A stretch of DNA of 60,025 nt. It comes from an uncultured Gammaproteobacteria bacterium. GTDB lineage: Bacteria > Patescibacteriota > Patescibacteriia > UBA1558 > S5-K13. The notes beneath the pieces were generated by a model. The model had not been told where the DNA came from. It ran no database searches and saw only the letters and a list, made by a program, of their open reading frames with translations. Both the position numbers and the translations under genes were made by a program. This document shows positions 3,058 through 40,242 of the stretch, one piece after another. Where the stretch lies: positions 1-60,025 of the forward strand of contig CAZXCJ010000001.1 of assembly GCA_964639335.1 (NCBI GenBank), written 5' to 3'. Every line of letters starts with the position of its first letter. Positions within the stretch are counted from its first letter, which is position 1.

Positions 3058-3111
3058 CCTGCCTTGCCGTAGTTCCCCGCTTTTTTAGAAAAGTGGGTGA
3101 ACGTAGGCAGG
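3058..3111 (+). repeat. GC-rich nested-hairpin module (family member without a tRNA-derived tail)
   Basis: Outer arms cctgcct 3058-3064 / aggcagg 3105-3111, gtag...cgta junction, inner hairpin ccccgctttt..aaaagtggg. A G-U pair is possible only on the plus strand. Confidence 0.45.
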
Positions 3112-3118
3112 TTGTTCC

Positions 3119-3511
3119 TTACTTCAAATACTTCTCATATTCTTTTCTTTTCTTATCTTCAGCTCTTAATTGCGGAACTCTATTCAAATAATATTGTATA
3201 ATGGTAATCAGCCAAATTAATAAAAAGCCCCACCACAATATCAAAACAAATCTAATTTGAAAATAGGGAACTCTAAATTTTCTGAAAAGTATAAGAAATA
3301 AACTAAGCAAACCCCCAATAAACAAAAAATTGGTTAATTTAGTATATAAAACTTTTTGATATTTATCTTTGGCCTTTTTGGAAAAAAAATACTTTAAAAA
3401 AATAGCCATTAAAATAAATGCTAGGGAAATCGCCAAAATAATAAAAAAAGTTCCTGGCTTAATGGCCGGGGGATAAGCGTCAAAAAGATATTGAAAACTT
3501 ATAATAGACAT
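3119..3511 (-). CDS. small integral membrane protein
   Basis: Four predicted TM helices; no recognisable motif. Confidence 0.45.
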   Translation of the reverse strand: MSIISFQYLFDAYPPAIKPGTFFIILAISLAFILMAIFLKYFFSKKAKDKYQKVLYTKLTNFLFIGGLLSLFLILFRKFRVPYFQIRFVLILWWGFLLIWLITIIQYYLNRVPQLRAEDKKRKEYEKYLK

Positions 3512-3512
3512 T

Positions 3513-4070
3513 CTACTTCTTAAAAATTAAACCAAAATGATATTGTCCTGCCTCAAATTCTTCCTCCAATTTTAAACCAAATACTTCACACAATTCTTTT
3601 ATTTTTTCTGGATTAACCCTTTTCTTAATGTCTGGTCCCAAAGGTGCGCCAATATTTTTCCAATCAATAATTAAAAGCTTGCCACCAACTTTAATTAATC
3701 TGATAGCTTCTTTAATCATTTCAGCCATATTAGCAGATTGAAAAAGGACATTATTCAAGATTCCTAAATTTAAAGAGCTTTCGGAAATTTTAGTAACTCC
3801 ATAGATTTCTAAATTACTCCAAATTGTGCGGACATTACTAAGGCCCTGATTTTTAGCATGACTTTCAGCTGAAGATAAAACTTGTTTTTGAACATCAACA
3901 GCATAAACCAAGCCCTTGTCTCCAACTATTCTAGCAGCTTGAAAAGTAAAGTAGGCCTTGGGTCCACAACCTAAATCAGCCACCCTATCTCCGTAGCCTA
4001 AACCAATGTGTTTTTCTAAAATTTGTTTAGGATCCAAAAGTTGATTACCTCCAGCCTGTTTCTTAAACAT
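3513..4070 (-). CDS. class I SAM-dependent methyltransferase
   Basis: VADLGCGPKAYF (motif I) and VYAVD (motif II). Confidence 0.8.
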   Translation of the reverse strand: MFKKQAGGNQLLDPKQILEKHIGLGYGDRVADLGCGPKAYFTFQAARIVGDKGLVYAVDVQKQVLSSAESHAKNQGLSNVRTIWSNLEIYGVTKISESSLNLGILNNVLFQSANMAEMIKEAIRLIKVGGKLLIIDWKNIGAPLGPDIKKRVNPEKIKELCEVFGLKLEEEFEAGQYHFGLIFKK

Positions 4071-4212
4071 ATATTTTTGTACATACTTATTGTATAATAA
4101 ATTACAACAGTAAAATTATTATATAATAAGTCCATCTAATTAAATTATAAGATATTTAATAAAAAATCAAGTATATTTTAATTATATTACCTCTTGATTA
4201 AACAATCAACTT

Positions 4213-4836
4213 ATGAACCTTGGTATTTTAATCATTATTATCAGTTTGTTGTCTTATTTGAGTAATCACATTAATAACAAATATTTAAATCATTTATCTA
4301 TTAAATATTTTTATTATTTAGGAATTATCATTCATGAATCTTCTCATGCTTTAATGTGTTTTTCTACAGGTGCAAAAATTATTAAATTTGAAATATTTTC
4401 CAGACAACCAAAAGTAACTCATTATAAATCAAAAATACCTATCTTGGGACAAACCCTAATATCTTTAGCTCCTCTCATAGGAGGATTTGCATTTCTTTGT
4501 TTAATAAATAATTATGTTTTGAAGGGTTGTATTAATATAAATACTCCGACAAATTTAAAAGAATTATTGGCCCTACCTTTTTCCATATTATCGCAAATAA
4601 ATATTTTGGAATGGAAAAGTTGGATTGTAATAATTCTTTCTTTAAATATTGGGGCTATGCTTGGTCCGTCCTTTCAAGATTTAAAAAACATCTGGTGGGT
4701 CTTTATAATTTTGTTTTTTATTAAGTGGCCATTTTTAATAAATACTGGACTAATCATTATTGCTTTAATAATTACTAATATTATTATTCAAATTTCTTTT
4801 ATATTAATCTCTAAAATCATAAAACCAGCTTCTTGA
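4213..4836 (+). CDS. polytopic membrane protein with HExxH motif (putative zinc metallopeptidase)
   Basis: IIHESSHALM sits within or next to a TM helix; multiple TM segments. Confidence 0.45.
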   Translation: MNLGILIIIISLLSYLSNHINNKYLNHLSIKYFYYLGIIIHESSHALMCFSTGAKIIKFEIFSRQPKVTHYKSKIPILGQTLISLAPLIGGFAFLCLINNYVLKGCININTPTNLKELLALPFSILSQINILEWKSWIVIILSLNIGAMLGPSFQDLKNIWWVFIILFFIKWPFLINTGLIIIALIITNIIIQISFILISKIIKPAS

Positions 4837-6638: not shown

Positions 6639-6884
6639 TTACTTTTTACTTACTAACTTCTCCTTTCCAATTCTAGACCATTTCTTAATTTGTCTTTCTC
6701 TTCTCATGGCCTCAATTTTAGTTTTAAACTCTTCAAAATATATAATTTTGACAGGTCTTCTTTGCTTAGTATATTTTGCACCTTTTCCTAAATTATGTTT
6801 CTTTTCTCTAGAATCTAAATTTTTACAATACCCTGTATAAAATGAGCTATCCCTGCACTTAGCTATATATGTATAAAATGACAT
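6639..6884 (-). CDS. GIY-YIG nuclease-superfamily protein (YhbQ/UPF0213-like)
   Basis: FYTYIAKC..SFYTGYCKNLDSREKKHNLGKGAKYT...RERQIKKW. Confidence 0.8.
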   Translation of the reverse strand: MSFYTYIAKCRDSSFYTGYCKNLDSREKKHNLGKGAKYTKQRRPVKIIYFEEFKTKIEAMRRERQIKKWSRIGKEKLVSKK

Positions 6885-6904
6885 AAAATATATTTAAAAC
6901 GTTT

Positions 6905-7031
6905 GTCCCTCGACTCCTCATTACATTCGTCGCTCGGGACACTCGATTCGTTTTTAAAAAGAATGGTTGGAATGAAGCGAAGCGAAATGAAAACCACGAG
7001 TGAGTCCCGAATTTATGAGGGACGAATCGAG
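6905..7031 (-). other. GC-rich structured spacer between tRNA-Ala(UGC) and the GIY-YIG gene
   Basis: 11-bp long-range complement (6940-6950 with 7023-7033) and 5-bp stems gtccc/gggac at 6905/6936 and 7004/7019. Confidence 0.4.
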
Positions 7032-7108
7032 TGGTGGACCTGGAGAGACTCGAACTCTCGACCCCCTGCTTGCAAAGCAGGTGCTCTAGCCAACTGAGCT
7101 ACAGGCCC
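7032..7108 (-). tRNA. tRNA-Ala (anticodon UGC), CCA encoded
   Basis: Cloverleaf gggcctg/caggtcc with G3:U70, anticodon loop ttTGCaa, T-loop ttcgagt. Confidence 0.93.
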
Positions 7109-7168
7109 TTATTTTATTATATATTAATCTTATATTATCGAATAACTATTTAAAATCTAATTGTTATT

Positions 7169-7281
7169 TGCGAAGTTGGGAACCAACTGTCGCAGACCCT
7201 GAGCCCGTCGAAGGGTCGAAGATCCTCCGTAGTCCCTCACTTTTTAAAAAAGTGGGGGGCGAAGGGGGAAGCTACAGGCCC
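7169..7281 (+). repeat. GC-rich multi-hairpin element ending in a 12-nt complement of the tRNA-Ala 5' end
   Basis: Hairpins at 7169-7194 and 7195-7218; nested module 7223-7269 (tcctcc-gtag-[hairpin]-cgaa-ggggga); 7270-7281 is identical to 7097-7108. Confidence 0.55.
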
Positions 7282-7401
7282 ATGTAGGAATTTTCAATTA
7301 CCAATTATCAATTTACAATAAATTTTTAATTATTGAATTATTAATTAAGTATGGCCGCGCCACAAACCCGAGTAAGGAGTTTACGACGAGCGAGTGGTTT
7401 A

Positions 7402-7478
7402 TGGTGGGTCCTATAGGATTCGAACCTACGGCCTTCTCGGTGTAAACGAGACGCTCTAACCAACTGAGCCAAGGACCC
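7402..7478 (-). tRNA. tRNA-Val (anticodon UAC), CCA encoded
   Basis: Acceptor gggtcct/aggaccc, anticodon loop ttTACac, T-loop ttcgaat. Confidence 0.92.
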
Positions 7479-7546
7479 GTATGAATGTAAATAACAAATT
7501 ACAAATTTCAAATTACAAATAAAAACTTTTTAAAAAGAACTACTTG

Positions 7547-7597
7547 TCCTCCGTAGCTCCGAATCTTGTGAGGAGCGAAGGAGGAAGCCAAGGACCC
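7547..7597 (+). repeat. nested-hairpin module ending in a 12-nt complement of the tRNA-Val 5' end
   Basis: tcctcc-gtag-gctcc..ggagc-cgaa-ggagga-agc followed by caaggaccc; 7586-7597 is identical to 7467-7478. Confidence 0.55.
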
Positions 7598-7717
7598 AAT
7601 AAATTAATTTTGAATTATCAATTTTTAATTTCAAATAAATTTTTAATGAATTAATCTTTAATTAAAAATTTTGGGATTCAGATTTAAATTAAAATTTAAA
7701 ATTCAAAATTCAACTGC

Positions 7718-7806
7718 TGGTGCCAGAGAGAGGACTTGAACCTCCACGAGAAAAAATTCTCACAGGCCCCTCAAGCCTGAGCGTCTACCAGTTCCGCCAC
7801 TCTGGC
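7718..7806 (-). tRNA. tRNA-Leu (anticodon GAG), long variable arm, CCA encoded
   Basis: Acceptor gccagag/ctctggc, anticodon loop ttGAGgg, type II variable arm, T-loop ttcaagt. Confidence 0.9.
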
Positions 7807-7843
7807 AAAGGTCTACCAGACTGCCCCGCATATGAAGGAAGTA

Positions 7844-8284
7844 TTACTTAAATACGGATTTTTTTAATCTCTTAGTATAATTTTTTAGATAATATAATTT
7901 TGACTTCCTAGATTTTATTTTACCAACAACCTCTATTTTATCTATTAATGGAGAATTTATAGGAAATATCTTTTCTACTCCAATGCCACCTGATTCTTTT
8001 CTAACTGTAATAGTGGCCCCAACTTCTTGTCCGTGCTTACGAGCCAAAACAATGCCTTCAAAAACTTGGATTCTTTCTTTTTCTTCACCCTTAGTGTTTT
8101 TTTCTTTAATTTTTTGATAAACTTTAATAATTTGCCCTGGCTGAATATCCTTAAAATTGGCTTTTAAATCTTTTTTATCAATTTTTATGTCTTTTTTATC
8201 TTCTGATTTTTCAGATGTTTTGGCTTTTTGAACCTTTTCTTTCTCAAACTCTTTATTTATTGACTTATCTTCTTCTTTTTTCAT
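7844..8284 (-). CDS. rplS: 50S ribosomal protein L19 with a K/E-rich N-terminal extension
   Basis: IQPGQIIKV...[15 protein letters not shown]...ITVRK...[11 protein letters not shown]. The start was moved to the Met at 8284 because the upstream 50 codons of the ORF are hydrophobic junk. Confidence 0.9.
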
Positions 8285-13300: not shown

Positions 13301-13356
13301 ATAAAATTATATTTTTAAAAAGTAAAATCCTTTATCCAAGGCGAAAGGTTACATAA

Positions 13357-13374
13357 TTGTTCCACGTGGAACAA
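13357..13374. repeat. 18-bp palindrome ttgttccacgtggaacaa (copy 2)
   Basis: Exact copy. Confidence 0.8.
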
Positions 13375-13496
13375 TTGTAAATAAACAGTAGGGGCGTAAA
13401 CTATTCGTTAAGTAGTATTGTAAATAGCGCTGGTGGCAGCGCCATGAACTTGAATCAAGGAATAAACCTTAGCTCATGACAAAGACAAATAGTTCA

Positions 13497-13570: not shown

Positions 13571-13680
13571 TTATTCCTCCACTTTCTTCAAAAAGTGGAG
13601 GACAATTAACAATTTACAATTTACAATTTTAAATTATAAAAAAAATTAAAGTGCTTTATCTAAGCCAAAAAACACTTGAA

Positions 13681-13698
13681 TTGTTCCACGTGGAACAA
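13681..13698. repeat. 18-bp palindrome ttgttccacgtggaacaa (copy 3)
   Basis: Exact copy, 3 nt beyond the stop of the 13702 gene. Confidence 0.8.
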
Positions 13699-13701
13699 TT
13701 T

Positions 13702-16930: not shown

Positions 16931-17179
16931 TTAAATTTTTATTAATCTTTTATTTCTAAAAGCTATTCCTGAAGCAGTTTTTAAATATTTTTCGAAATCT
17001 AAGGCAACTTTTTTATCTTCAAATGCAGAATAAAAAACAATTTTCCAAGGCTTAAATTTATTTGTATATACTGATTTCCCAGAATTATGACCATTTATCC
17101 TATTTTTAATAGTTTTAGAGAATCCTGTATAAAATCGTTTAGGATAATTAATACTTTGAATAATATAGACGTAGTACAT
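16931..17179 (-). CDS. GIY-YIG nuclease-superfamily protein
   Basis: YYVYIIQS...RFYTGFSKTIKNRINGHNSGKSVYT..PWKIVFY. Confidence 0.8.
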   Translation of the reverse strand: MYYVYIIQSINYPKRFYTGFSKTIKNRINGHNSGKSVYTNKFKPWKIVFYSAFEDKKVALDFEKYLKTASGIAFRNKRLIKI

Positions 17180-17310
17180 ATTAATTTTTTTAAATCTAAC
17201 GAACTGGCCGTGCCATCCGAAGCGCAGATAATAATTATTTTAAACTTTTGTTGTCTAAGCAAGCCCTGCTACGCTAAAGCTACGCAGGGCATCCTTCGCT
17301 ACGCGAAGGA
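17180..17310 (-). other. structured spacer between tRNA-Ala(GGC) and the GIY-YIG gene
   Basis: 10-bp hairpin 17290-17299/17303-17312; 7-bp stem gccctgc/gcagggc at 17263-17290; GC-rich block at 17203-17224. Confidence 0.4.
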
Positions 17311-17410: not shown

Positions 17411-17462
17411 TGGCCAGCTGCCTGTCCGCTGAAGCTTTAGCGAAAGCGGAAGCTATAGGCCC
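17411..17462 (+). repeat. nested-hairpin module ending in a 12-nt tRNA-Ala-5'-end-like complement
   Basis: tccgct-gaag-ctttag-cgaa-agcgga-agc-tataggccc. The 12-mer matches tRNA-Ala(UGC) at 11/12 positions and the adjacent tRNA-Ala(GGC) at 8/12. Confidence 0.5.
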
Positions 17463-25522: not shown

Positions 25523-26328
25523 CCGAAAGGTGGTCATCTTATACACCTCTACATACTAGACAAAGAAAGACAATGCATACAGCAGAAGAACAGAAAGCTA
25601 TTAAGCTGAGAAAACAACATATGCATTGGGGTAAAATGAAGTTATCTCCATTATATAAAAATATCTATCAAGAAAAGCTTTCTAGTTGGCAATTTCAAAG
25701 AATAATCCAAGATTACAAACTTTATCCTAAACCAGTTAAGAATGCTAGAACACAGGCTAAAAGACAAAGATCATTAAAAAAGAAAAGAATAACTGAATTA
25801 AAGAAGAAAAAACCAATATTAGGTTACTTATTACATTTTGATACCATAGTTATTTATTGGAATGGAATGAAAAGATATATTATTACTATGATAGATGAAT
25901 TTACTAAAATAGCTTTTGCTAGAATGTATAAAAATCATAGTTCTTATTCAGCTCAAGACTTTCTAAATAGAGTTGATTACTTATTAGATAATAAAATTAA
26001 TAATGTTCATTCAGATAATGGATCAGAATTTGGAAAATACTTTAAACAGCTTTGTAAACAATTAAAACTAACTCAATATTATTCTCGAACTAGAACACCT
26101 AAAGATAATCCTTCCATAGAAAGATTTAATAGAACTTTAAAGTATGAATGGTTATTTGATGGTAACTTTAATGAAGACATAGATGTATTTAATAATAATT
26201 TAAAAGACTTCTTAATTGAATATAATTTTGTTAGACCTCATCAAACATTAAACTATTTAACACCTATGCAATTTGCTGTAAAATACAAACAAGTGTCCGA
26301 AAGGTGGTCATCTTATACACGGGGTTGA
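25523..26328 (+). mobile_element. IS481-like (rve/DDE) element remnant bracketed by 24-bp direct repeats
   Basis: ccgaaaggtggtcatcttatacac at 25523-25546 and 26297-26320; I could not find terminal inverted repeats. Confidence 0.55.
25573..26328 (+). CDS. DDE (rve) transposase, IS481-family-like, lacking the N-terminal HTH region
   Basis: HFDT...MIDEFTK...HSDNGSEF...TRTPKDNPSIERFNRTLKYEW; only 251 aa. Confidence 0.8.
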   Translation: MHTAEEQKAIKLRKQHMHWGKMKLSPLYKNIYQEKLSSWQFQRIIQDYKLYPKPVKNARTQAKRQRSLKKKRITELKKKKPILGYLLHFDTIVIYWNGMKRYIITMIDEFTKIAFARMYKNHSSYSAQDFLNRVDYLLDNKINNVHSDNGSEFGKYFKQLCKQLKLTQYYSRTRTPKDNPSIERFNRTLKYEWLFDGNFNEDIDVFNNNLKDFLIEYNFVRPHQTLNYLTPMQFAVKYKQVSERWSSYTRG

Positions 26329-38871: not shown

Positions 38872-40242
38872 ATGAATAAAGAAAAAATTTGGCAAGCTGT
38901 TTTGGGAGAATTAGAGCTTTCAATTTCTAAAGCCAGTTTTACCACTTGGTTTAAAAACACTTATATCTTAGATATTGAAAAAGAAAATGTTTTAATTGCT
39001 GTTCCAAATGGCTTTACTAAAAGATGGTTAGAAAGTCGCTATAACAAAAATATTTTAGAGGCCTTAAATAATATTTTAAAAGACCAGGGTATAAAAAATT
39101 TAATTTTTAAAATTTCTCCAGACATAAAACATTCTGAAAAAAAAGAAAAGATTAGTCTAAAAGAAATAACTAAAAAATATTCAGAAAAAAGTACTAAGCT
39201 TTCTATAAATGGAACCTATATTTTAAATCCTAAATATACTTTTAATGGATTTATAGCTGGTAAACAAAATGAATTAGCTAAAGCCGCTTGTGTGGCCGTT
39301 GCTAAAGAACCTGGCCAGGTCTATAATCCACTTTTTCTCTATGGAGAAGTGGGGTTAGGAAAGACTCATTTAATGCAATCCATAGGCAATGAAATCAAAA
39401 AAACCCTTCCTAAATATAAAATGATTTACATTAGTAGTGAGGATTTTACTAATGATTATGTTAAATCCATTCAATCTGGTAATATGGATAACTTTAAAAA
39501 AAAATATCGTGAATTAGATATCTTACTAGTTGATGATATTCAATTTATGAAAGGTCAGGAAAGAACTCAAGAAGAGTTTTTTCATACTTTTAATGCCTTA
39601 CATCAGCAAAACAAACAAATAGTTATTAGTTCTGATAGGCCGCCAAAGTCATTGCCAGCTATAGAAGAAAGATTAACCTCTCGTTTTGAAAGTGGCATGA
39701 TTGCAGACATAGGCCATCCAGATTTAGAAACAAGAATAGCCATTTTAAAATCAAAAATTAAAGAAAAAAACATTAAATTAGAAATTTCCGAAGATGTTAT
39801 TACCTATATTGCTAATATTGCCAGTAATAATGTCCGTGAGTTAGAGGGGGCTTTAAATAGAGCTATGGCTGTTCATGAATTAAATAATGAAGAAATAAAT
39901 ATTGATTCTGTAAAAGAAATACTAGGCAAACTATCTTCTTCTCAAAAAAGCGTTGGTATTAACACTAAAAAAATAATAAAGACAATCTCTGAATATTTTG
40001 AATTAAAATTAGAAGATTTAAAAGGCAATTCTCGCAAAAAGGAATTAGTAGTCCCTCGGCAAATATGTATGTATTTAATGCGTAAAGAAATTAATGCCTC
40101 TTATCCAAATATAGGTTCAGAATTGGGTGGCCGAGATCACACTACTGCTATCCATTCCTATAATAAGATAAATAAAGAGATTAAAAATAATGACAAAATA
40201 AAGAATGATATTGAGTTAATTAGACAGAGGTTGTATGGATAG
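38872..40242 (+). CDS. dnaA: chromosomal replication initiator DnaA
   Basis: GEVGLGKTHL, LLVDDIQF, sensor motifs and C-terminal DNA-binding GGRDHTTAIHS. Confidence 0.96.
   Translation: MNKEKIWQAVLGELELSISKASFTTWFKNTYILDIEKENVLIAVPNGFTKRWLESRYNKNILEALNNILKDQGIKNLIFKISPDIKHSEKKEKISLKEITKKYSEKSTKLSINGTYILNPKYTFNGFIAGKQNELAKAACVAVAKEPGQVYNPLFLYGEVGLGKTHLMQSIGNEIKKTLPKYKMIYISSEDFTNDYVKSIQSGNMDNFKKKYRELDILLVDDIQFMKGQERTQEEFFHTFNALHQQNKQIVISSDRPPKSLPAIEERLTSRFESGMIADIGHPDLETRIAILKSKIKEKNIKLEISEDVITYIANIASNNVRELEGALNRAMAVHELNNEEINIDSVKEILGKLSSSQKSVGINTKKIIKTISEYFELKLEDLKGNSRKKELVVPRQICMYLMRKEINASYPNIGSELGGRDHTTAIHSYNKINKEIKNNDKIKNDIELIRQRLYG

Follow-up and report, generated by a model that had tools for sequence, protein, structure and literature searches.

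Analysis of the window, a stretch of 60,025 nucleotides at the start of contig CAZXCJ010000001.1 of an uncultured bacterium (assembly GCA_964639335.1), indicated that the structured element at positions 7169 to 7281, upstream of the tRNA-Ala(UGC) gene, is probably the remnant of a copy of the 5' part of this gene (nucleotides 1 to 19), split after nucleotide 12 by a palindrome similar to the repetitive extragenic palindromes (REPs). According to this reading the element is debris at the level of the DNA and not a guide gene.

Copies of tRNA 5' ends upstream of intact tRNA genes

Six tRNA genes, all on the minus strand, were identified in the window with ARAGORN and Rfam. The sequence at 7270-7281 (agctacaggccc; segment A, or the tail) matched 7097-7108, the reverse complement of nucleotides (nt) 1-12 of tRNA-Ala(UGC), at 12 of 12 positions. 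By chance, a given 12-mer would be repeated at such short range (a few hundred nt, one strand) about 1e-4 to 1e-5 times. In this locus the identity ended at tRNA position +1. The sequence CCAACTG at 7181-7187 (segment B) is the reverse complement of nt 13-19 of the same tRNA, and both the tail and this piece are copies of the tRNA gene. When read on the tRNA-sense strand the element consisted of nt 1-12, a palindromic module (module M), two more hairpins and nt 13-19, the module being located between nt 12 and nt 13 of the tRNA copy. Module M was composed of two arms (7223-7228 and 7264-7269) which enclose GTAG (7229-7232), an inner hairpin (7233-7259) and CGAA (7260-7263). The hairpin at 7169-7194 was formed by the CCAACTG piece and an inverted copy of that piece (AGTTGG, 7173-7178), and the hairpin at 7195-7218 (GACCCT GAG..CGA AGGGTC) obeyed the module grammar and was a second module in degenerate form. 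A first-pass annotation of this DNA had given the 12-nt repeat and the layout of module M correctly and had overlooked the CCAACTG piece, the degenerate module and the two further units in the window described below.

The plus strand of 7169-7281, folded as RNA, had a minimum free energy (MFE) of -53.4 kcal/mol (z = -4.17; 0 of 200 shuffles were as good) and formed three hairpins at 7169-7194, 7195-7217 and 7223-7269, while the minus strand reached -44.2 kcal/mol (z = -2.97), so that the plus strand was 9 kcal/mol more stable. The preference for the plus strand, the two further hairpins and the T-G pairs 7226-7266, 7237-7255 and 7233-7259, all claimed in the first-pass annotation, were confirmed. 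In searches of Rfam 15 only tRNAs reached the gathering score, and nothing meaningful was obtained at E <= 10 over positions 6900-7900. Judged by inspection, and to our knowledge, the module core fits no hammerhead, hairpin, twister, pistol or hatchet ribozyme and no box C/D, H/ACA, K-turn, TIGR array or T-box.

Every tRNA with at least 100 nt of upstream sequence in the fetched loci (n = 104) was surveyed for repeats of its nt 1-12, using a window of 700 nt upstream and at most 1 mismatch. The repeat was found 43 times upstream in direct orientation, 0 times downstream and 0 times inverted, and in nearly all of the 43 upstream copies the module came directly after, with nt 13-20 behind it. 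The remnant always lies upstream of the intact tRNA in the same orientation, and the junction always falls after nt 12 (..RGCT, or ..GTT in tRNA-Asp). The unit-linked tRNAs represented about 17 species, including Pro, Ile, Lys, Phe, Thr, Met, His, Arg, Val, Ala, Asn and Asp, and their hosts belonged to several Patescibacteria classes, Omnitrophota, Neomarinimicrobiota/Fidelibacterota, Bacteroidota (Cytophagales), Ignavibacteriae and proteobacterial metagenome-assembled genomes (MAGs). The outer ends of the tRNA copy were variable, the left end falling between about -8 and +2 and the right end between nt 19 and nt 38 or beyond, and the distance between unit and tRNA ranged from about 15 to more than 400 nt. 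Segment B followed the D-loop of the neighbouring tRNA, as illustrated by CCGACTG in L065, CCATTG in L210 and CCCCTG in L022 (the loci compared are designated by L and a number).

The first-pass annotation had proposed that covariation of the tail with the neighbouring tRNA be tested. Among 24 independent module-tRNA pairs the acceptor nt 1-7 were perfectly matched in 17 and carried one mismatch in 2, while 0 of 542 non-cognate pairings were perfect. The proposed test was thus positive. Tracking fails in older or hybrid loci, where the tail mismatched the neighbouring tRNA: L366 (5 mismatches), L355, L365, L352, L026/L053 and the third copy in the window. Shared descent accounts for the covariation just as well as guidance does and, given the evidence from leaders, tRNA-body pieces, drifted tails and relatives, is its best explanation.

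In other loci the identity extended past tRNA position +1 into the leader, by 5 nt in L036, 6 nt in L065 and at least 8 nt in L037 and L210, which indicates that the gene was copied and not the mature tRNA; a cDNA of the mature tRNA was rejected as the source for this reason. Pieces of the tRNA body were also kept, namely nt 21-35 and the acceptor 3' strand in the tRNA-Phe remnant of L032, nt 45-59 in L228, and sequences up to nt 35 in L356 and up to nt 38 in L366. Only in some loci can the spacer be read as the decayed body of a tRNA. Tandem arrays of units were found in L037 (90-nt period), L210 (3 units), L275 (4 units), L359 and L365, and in L037 and L014 the tail pairs with an inverted copy of itself.

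The remnants of L350, L360, L364 and L368 kept T-arm pieces, their anticodon arm being replaced by a palindrome TCCCG..CGGGA. This second palindrome family occupied the place of the anticodon arm in pseudo-tRNAs of several phyla (L350, L360, L364, L367, L368 and L228), and palindromes appear to take the place of hairpin-forming parts of dead tRNA genes. L349 (about 3500-3800) and L362, both from Dojkabacteria-type MAGs, carried a pseudo-tRNA-Thr of full length that has the module at its 12/13 junction, and a functional tRNA-Thr(UGU) flanked by 10-bp inverted repeats (TCACTCCTCA/TGAGGAGTGA) was nested at its anticodon-arm position.

The module as a dispersed, nested, multi-copy palindrome

A search of species-representative genomes with the strict pattern TCCTCCGTAG-N10-40-CGAAGGRGGAAGC gave 72 module loci in many phyla, among them Verrucomicrobiota, Planctomycetota, Omnitrophota, Patescibacteria, Bdellovibrionota, Desulfobacterales, Acidobacteriota and Bacteroidota. 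Two further scan patterns mostly matched other sequences, CCAACTGCCTGN6GWAG the codons of the GAPDH active site and CGAAGGAGGAAGCTA Shine-Dalgarno and start-codon contexts, and together they added about 20 real loci. A scan of viral contigs gave 4 matches, which indicates that the module is not a phage feature. The inner hairpins were freely variable in sequence and the hairpin was always kept; many copies were nested in one another ("Russian-doll") or arranged in tandem arrays of arms, and single MAGs carried 3-5 near-identical members of the module family on separate contigs. The module occurs as a palindrome in multiple copies, dispersed or nested, in many phyla and in non-tRNA contexts, and its nesting, multi-copy families and free hairpin variation amount to the behaviour of a REP-like repeat. 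In Deferrimicrobium-like MAGs (L001, L007 and L071) tandem arrays of module arms, with 12-nt and 18-24-nt units, were located within the dnaX frame, recalling the REPs reported in replication genes.

Alignment of 35 homologues revealed that 95.3% of the cells were paired and that 9 of the 10 modelled pairs showed compensatory changes. All copies carried GTAG, GAAG or GCAG 5' of the variable hairpin, the G, A and G of GNAG being invariant (alignment A3). Wobble pairs favoured the module strand by about 10:1 in a register-aware parse of the tRNA-anchored units; a simple count of G-T versus A-C in the inner hairpins gave 11 versus 6. The GNAG/CGAA loop was purine-rich solely on the strand antisense to the tRNA.

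The covariance model built from the curated alignment of these 35 homologues detected exactly three tRNA-linked copies in the window (60.5, 52.1 and 40.0 bits) and, weakly, the inverted variant at 17264-17289, located directly downstream of tRNA-Ala-GGC. A relaxed pattern found 5 real modules in the 60-kb window versus 0.4 expected from shuffles, including a copy without a tRNA at 3063-3111, the inner hairpin of which is related to 7233-7259. The tail of the second unit, at 7586-7597, was identical at 12 of 12 positions to nt 1-12 of tRNA-Val, upstream of which the unit lies. The third unit lies upstream of tRNA-Ala-GGC, and its tail, AGCTATAGGCCC, showed 4 mismatches in 12 to this adjacent tRNA and 1 to tRNA-Ala-UGC.

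The module is best filed as a variant of the GTAG-type REP-like palindromes. REPs are described as carrying a GTAG tag or a variant of it, such as GYAG, a tail of 3 bp and G-T pairing on one strand, and as being inserted in small palindromes and inside genes, including replication genes (PMC3733652). RAYT transposases cleave single-stranded REPs in a strand-specific manner at CT or CA, guided by GTAG (PMC8266576). The module shares with the REP and REPIN sequences mobilised by RAYT (TnpA_REP, Y1 HUH) the short, GC-rich, imperfect palindrome with a GTAG (GNAG) tag on one strand, a 3-nt tail GAA as in the GTAG-1/2 families, one-strand G-T pairs, and a variable stem-loop with covarying stems. As far as the window and the MAG contigs show, the module, like the REPs, is dispersed in multiple copies, clustered or nested, within small palindromes and occasionally in genes (replication genes), and it forms inverted pairs, such as 17264-17289 with 17425-17450; the CT/CA dinucleotides at the module flanks (CCTG, AGCT) match the known RAYT cleavage dinucleotides. 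On the contrary, the module core is enclosed in an extra conserved 6-bp arm pair (TCCTCC/GGAGGA) with YTG...AGC flanks, it is near-identical across distant phyla, in contrast to the usual restriction of REPs to single lineages, its vicinity yielded no RAYT gene, and its systematic tie to 5' remnants of tRNA genes, always joined after nt 12, was not encountered in the REP literature searched. The fixed-site association of the module with tRNA 5' pseudo-copies across phyla appears to be undescribed in the literature searched.

Palindrome-associated transposable elements (PATEs) derived from IS200/IS605, which move by "peel and paste", insert 3' of a fixed short motif with no classical target duplication, as the module may do (here after ..RGCT on the tRNA-sense strand), and have hairpin ends, strand asymmetry and nesting in common with the module. 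The module differs in being one nested hairpin and not a pair of distinct left and right ends, and in that its folding strand lies in the window on the leading-strand template when the active PATE strand lies on the lagging-strand template; no TnpA or TnpB was seen with it. The tRNA att-site duplications and the SegB amplifications of T-even phages share the direct repeat of a partial tRNA gene beside an intact copy, the recombination hotspot within a tRNA gene, the adjacent GIY-YIG gene and the tandem arrays. They differ in that here the 5' end is duplicated (nt 1 to about 20) and not the 3' part, the intervening element measures tens to hundreds of bp (60-160 bp between copies in the att test), and the GIY-YIG proteins are catalytic domains of 80-85 aa devoid of a DNA-binding domain, with no integrase. 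The element does not fit the att-site duplications of integrases: the repeat is present, but no recombinase was found and the duplicated part is the 5' end.

Absence or loss of the unit in relatives and the probable origin of the element

Comparison with syntenic relatives revealed that L348, L345 and L203 have the same tRNA-Val/tRNA-Ala 5' ends as the window and no unit (in L203, none for Val). In L348 the tRNAs formed a compact operon (Leu, 8 nt, Val, 22 nt, Ala), and in L345 only AT-rich spacers were present, with no remnant. In the conspecific L336 (99.9% identity) a 166-nt deletion has taken out the tail and the 3' arm, and tRNA-Ala was intact. The unit is dispensable. Within L336 100-150 (corresponding to window 7234-7401) the inner hairpin was swapped to TCGAGCTCAGCTCGA with breakpoints at TTCG and CTAC motifs, as if the core from GTAG through the hairpin to CGAA were an exchangeable cassette, and the L336 module abuts the CCA end of tRNA-Val, as one does that of tRNA-Leu in L203. 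In the orthologous unit of L207 GTAG and CGAA were lost and the hairpin was kept through compensatory change. The window spacer upstream of tRNA-Val was homologous to the native upstream region of the relatives L203 and L207. The AT-rich spacers in front of tRNA-Val and tRNA-Ala in L345 (3006-3278), of about 70 nt, are copies of each other; compared with the gaps of 8 and 22 nt in L348, these duplicate spacers suggest that promoter-bearing spacers seem to have spread between tRNA genes.

The strain represented by L328, 99.96% identical to the window, diverged exactly at window position 7092, which is nt 17 of tRNA-Ala, in the D-loop. In L328 (11177-11355) nt 1-17 were followed by the hairpins TCCGCCAAAGGCGGA and CCAGCCCCTGGCTGGGG, by nt 18-28, and then by tRNA-Ala(CGC) and metal-resistance genes; one of these hairpins was TCCGCC-AAA-GGCGGA, that is, module arms with the core missing. 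The L328 contig begins with window positions 7384 to 1 in opposite orientation, and this "island" may be an inversion or an assembly chimera.

The guide-like arrangement proposed in the first-pass annotation was not supported, since in the relatives the unit was absent (L348, L345 and L203) or the tail lost (L336) with the tRNAs unchanged, an outcome that the annotation itself had named as refuting the guide. The evidence supports the other reading given there, in which recombination or insertion has left a footprint at the 5' end of the tRNA. In the guide explanation a plus-strand RNA would carry the module as a protein-binding scaffold, and the flanks, antisense to nt 13-19 and nt 1-12, would direct an effector to the tRNA 12/13 junction. 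The tail and the 5' flank do track the neighbouring tRNA, the purine-rich GNAG/CGAA loops and the G-U pairs favour the plus strand, the module sequence is conserved across phyla, and the topology of the unit is one which we take to resemble an H/ACA pocket. Like bipartite guide RNAs (the H/ACA pocket, or the OMEGA/TnpB scaffold with its 3' guide), it has two target-complementary flanks and a complementary 3' tail. Unlike them, it has no ACA box, K-turn, lower stem or effector gene and is dispensable, and its complementarity is explained by gene duplication. Selection would be expected to maintain a guide as long as its target persists, yet units are absent or truncated and tails have drifted from the neighbouring tRNA in the mismatched loci listed above. 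Leader and tRNA-body pieces were copied along, the tails of L037 and L014 pair with their own inverted copies, and the module is common in places that have no tRNA-like flanks. No recurrent neighbouring protein and no Rfam family was found, and a consensus scan detected no plus-strand promoter-like site upstream of either unit (7169-7281 and 7541-7597). As for a conserved effector, GIY-YIG genes were enriched only near tRNA-linked units, which is an association only. We regard a guide function as very improbable.

A function in cis on the sense strand, in which the duplicated promoter, nt 1-12 and the hairpin would tune tRNA expression by serving as an additional promoter, an insulator, a terminator or a signal for processing, seems improbable to us, even if several features fit it. 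The orphan Val 12-mer is preceded, at a distance of 9 nt, by a promoter-like TTGAAA-16-CAAAAT that mirrors the promoter of tRNA-Val, units are located directly upstream of the tRNA promoter (in L020 the spacer is 24 nt, and the arm and CAGG overlap the -35 position), the L207 hairpin persisted despite the loss of GTAG and CGAA, and arrays multiply promoters. On the contrary, such a function accords poorly with the wide range of distances between unit and tRNA, with a hairpin that is weaker on the sense strand and has no T-run after it, with the absence of the unit in relatives, and with the presence of the module in unrelated contexts, including the inside of open reading frames (ORFs).

The invariant junction after nt 12 and the strict polarity could also be explained by a coupled "disrupt-and-replace" event, in which a selfish element, the palindrome possibly together with a GIY-YIG/D-element (described below) or tRNA-carrying cassette, disrupts the resident tRNA gene within its D-arm and an intact replacement with a promoter of its own is left downstream, the 5' remnant and module being an attL-like scar of integration or homing targeted to the tRNA 5' end. 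The functional tRNA-Thr nested, with its 10-bp inverted repeats, in the pseudo-tRNA-Thr of L349 and L362 would agree with this, as would the remnant acceptor stems of L366 and L355, which are unlike the functional neighbour as if an allele had been replaced, the strain variant, in which the break at nt 17 precedes hairpins and a further tRNA-Ala, and the enrichment of GIY-YIG ORFs nearby. We nevertheless regard it as unlikely: no tRNA 3' remnants were found downstream of intact tRNAs or GIY-YIG genes in the window, segments B and S (the spacer in front of the intact tRNA) are locus-specific, which leaves no single element sequence as donor, L345 has GIY-YIG and AT-rich spacers and no remnant, and no integrase or transposase recurs beside modules.

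For the remnant of a gene copy split by a REP-like palindrome, we infer the way in which the copies arise. A short tandem duplication that takes in the promoter and only the 5' portion of a tRNA gene would yield a truncated copy, in agreement with the promoter-like sequence in front of the orphan Val 12-mer, and the position of this copy upstream of the intact gene follows from the geometry of a duplication that lacks the 3' part; the 43:0 asymmetry is explained by this geometry with no need for a function. The palindrome would then insert site-specifically after nt 12 where insertion is tolerated, that is, in the non-essential copy, and the invariant junction together with the variable copy ends points to site-specific insertion into an imprecisely duplicated copy. 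Unequal crossing-over between the repeated 12-20 nt would generate the tandem arrays, and neighbouring GIY-YIG cassettes may supply the breaks that drive duplication, by analogy with SegB of phage T6. The plus strand would fold better as the one in which the palindrome, like that of a REP, is recognised or takes up its structure in single-stranded DNA or RNA. The target ..GTAGCT|CAG.. with the D-arm hairpin could itself be REP-like, having GTAG, a CT dinucleotide and a hairpin, a likeness in sequence that is suggestive only.

Several observations weigh against this reading. The upstream flank of the orphan 12-mer in the window shows no clear homology to spacer S, and nearly every remnant found bears a module, in loci that were selected for modules. 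With dnaA at 38872 and the GC skew as reference, the placement of the GTAG strand of the module is opposite to the IS200/IS605 rule. Arm and loop sequences are nearly identical in different phyla, which is uncommon among REPs and hints that a conserved factor recognises them or that they have a conserved function, and no RAYT/Y1 or TnpB transposase was found among the window genes or recurrently beside modules. All-against-all clustering of the ORFs of the 72 module loci revealed no shared protein family beyond synteny. There is a small chance that the module is instead part of an undescribed selfish system that targets tRNA genes, possibly worked by GIY-YIG, inserts after nt 12 and is coupled to the regeneration of an intact tRNA or, less likely, a plus-strand bipartite antisense guide to the 12/13 junction; in the case of a selfish system the conservation across phyla would reflect recognition by a conserved enzyme.

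Neighbouring features and significance

The features of the window are given in Table 1. Spacer S contains, by inspection, a TATAAT box 7 nt upstream of tRNA-Ala +1; the consensus promoter scan reported no site in it.

Table 1. Coordinates of the tRNA-linked units, module copies and neighbouring features in the window
Feature	Position	Strand	Evidence
Intact tRNA-Ala(UGC), source of segments A and B	7032-7108	-	ARAGORN; Rfam, 71.5 bits
AT-rich spacer S, between remnant and intact tRNA-Ala; presumed tRNA-Ala promoter	7109-7168	-	sequence only
Hairpin with segment B (CCAACTG, 7181-7187) and inverted copy AGTTGG	7169-7194	+	sequence, MFE
Second, degenerate module/hairpin (GACCCT GAG CCCGT CGA AGGGTC)	7195-7218	+	sequence, MFE structure
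Module M: arm TCCTCC, GTAG, inner hairpin, CGAA, arm GGGGGA	7223-7269	+	sequence, MFE, covariance model 40 bits
Segment A (tail), orphan copy of tRNA-Ala nt 1-12	7270-7281	-	12/12 identity to 7097-7108
Second unit: decayed B (aactacttg), module 7547-7585, tail 7586-7597	7541-7597	+	covariance model 60.5 bits
Third unit: CCAGCTG and CCTG, module TCCGCT GAAG CTTTAG CGAA AGCGGA, tail AGCTATAGGCCC	17414-17462	+	covariance model 52.1 bits
Inverted module variant CCCTGC GTAG CTTTAG CGTA GCAGGG	17264-17289	-	relaxed pattern; covariance model 14.9 bits
tRNA-unlinked module copy CTTGCC GTAG ... CGTA GGCAGG	3063-3111	+	relaxed pattern
GIY-YIG nuclease ORF, 81 aa, downstream of tRNA-Ala(UGC)	6642-6884	-	Pfam PF01541, E = 1.9e-18
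Second small GIY-YIG ORF, downstream of tRNA-Ala-GGC	about 16934-17239	-	catalytic domain only
D element, conserved, structured, GC-rich, directly 3' of the tRNA CCA end	6885-7031	-	alignment A1/A2, RNAalifold

The GIY-YIG ORFs of the window (81-100 aa) encode the catalytic domain only, and one lies downstream of each unit-bearing tRNA-Ala. Such ORFs were also present near units of other phyla, in L077, L003, L023, L345, L358, L360 (four in tandem) and L363, in total 9 in 142 kb of tRNA-unit loci versus 0 in about 1.6 Mb of chance-hit loci, a difference in which taxonomic confounding is possible. There is a precedent in phage T6, where tRNA loci undergo segmental amplification driven by SegB, a GIY-YIG endonuclease that cuts within tRNA genes (PMC13096335). 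The 81-aa protein is a possible associated nuclease, linked to the element by association only.

The D element, of 150-240 nt, starts directly after the CCA end of tRNA-Ala or tRNA-Val and is or is not followed by a GIY-YIG ORF; RNAalifold gave 30 pairs, 13 of them with compensatory changes, and no Rfam match was obtained. Further copies were located at 3833-4030 and 4239-4475 in L203 and at 3975-4246 and 4618-4770 in L207. The D element could be a 5' untranslated region or form one end of a GIY-YIG cassette directed at the 3' flanks of tRNAs.

A hairpin TCCTCC-ACTTTCTTCAAAAAGT-GGAGGA at 13575-13602, 4 nt upstream of tRNA-Gly, has the same arms as the module and an inner sequence related to 7233-7259, and it carries no GTAG, CGAA or tRNA copy. 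Two copies of a perfect 22-bp palindrome (AATTGTTCCACGTGGAACAATT), at 13356-13377 and 13679-13700, flank the tRNA-Arg/tRNA-Gly pair and may be a regulator binding site or belong to another repeat family. The replication origin is marked by dnaA-dnaN and a change of sign of the GC skew at 35-40 kb. An IS-type rve (DDE) integrase ORF is located at 25573-26328, and two small 23S_rRNA_IVP (four-helix-bundle) genes lie at about 2590-2838.

Annotators and those who search for guide RNAs would be cautioned, if the element is indeed a split gene-copy remnant, that gene duplication can yield perfect complementarity to a tRNA beside a structured hairpin. The sequence ..GTAGCT|CAG.., itself a mimic of GTAG with a hairpin, would offer a sequence-defined target for the study of site choice by REP-like elements, and rearrangement breakpoints in tRNA genes at the strain level would be explained. 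The enrichment of minimal GIY-YIG proteins would make a link between nuclease, tRNA-gene breakage and local amplification testable outside phages. The tRNA genes of streamlined uncultured bacteria, those of the candidate phyla radiation and others, would then carry recurrent, site-specific junk, in the form of pseudo-copies of their 5' ends that a REP-like palindrome found across phyla divides at a single phosphodiester bond.

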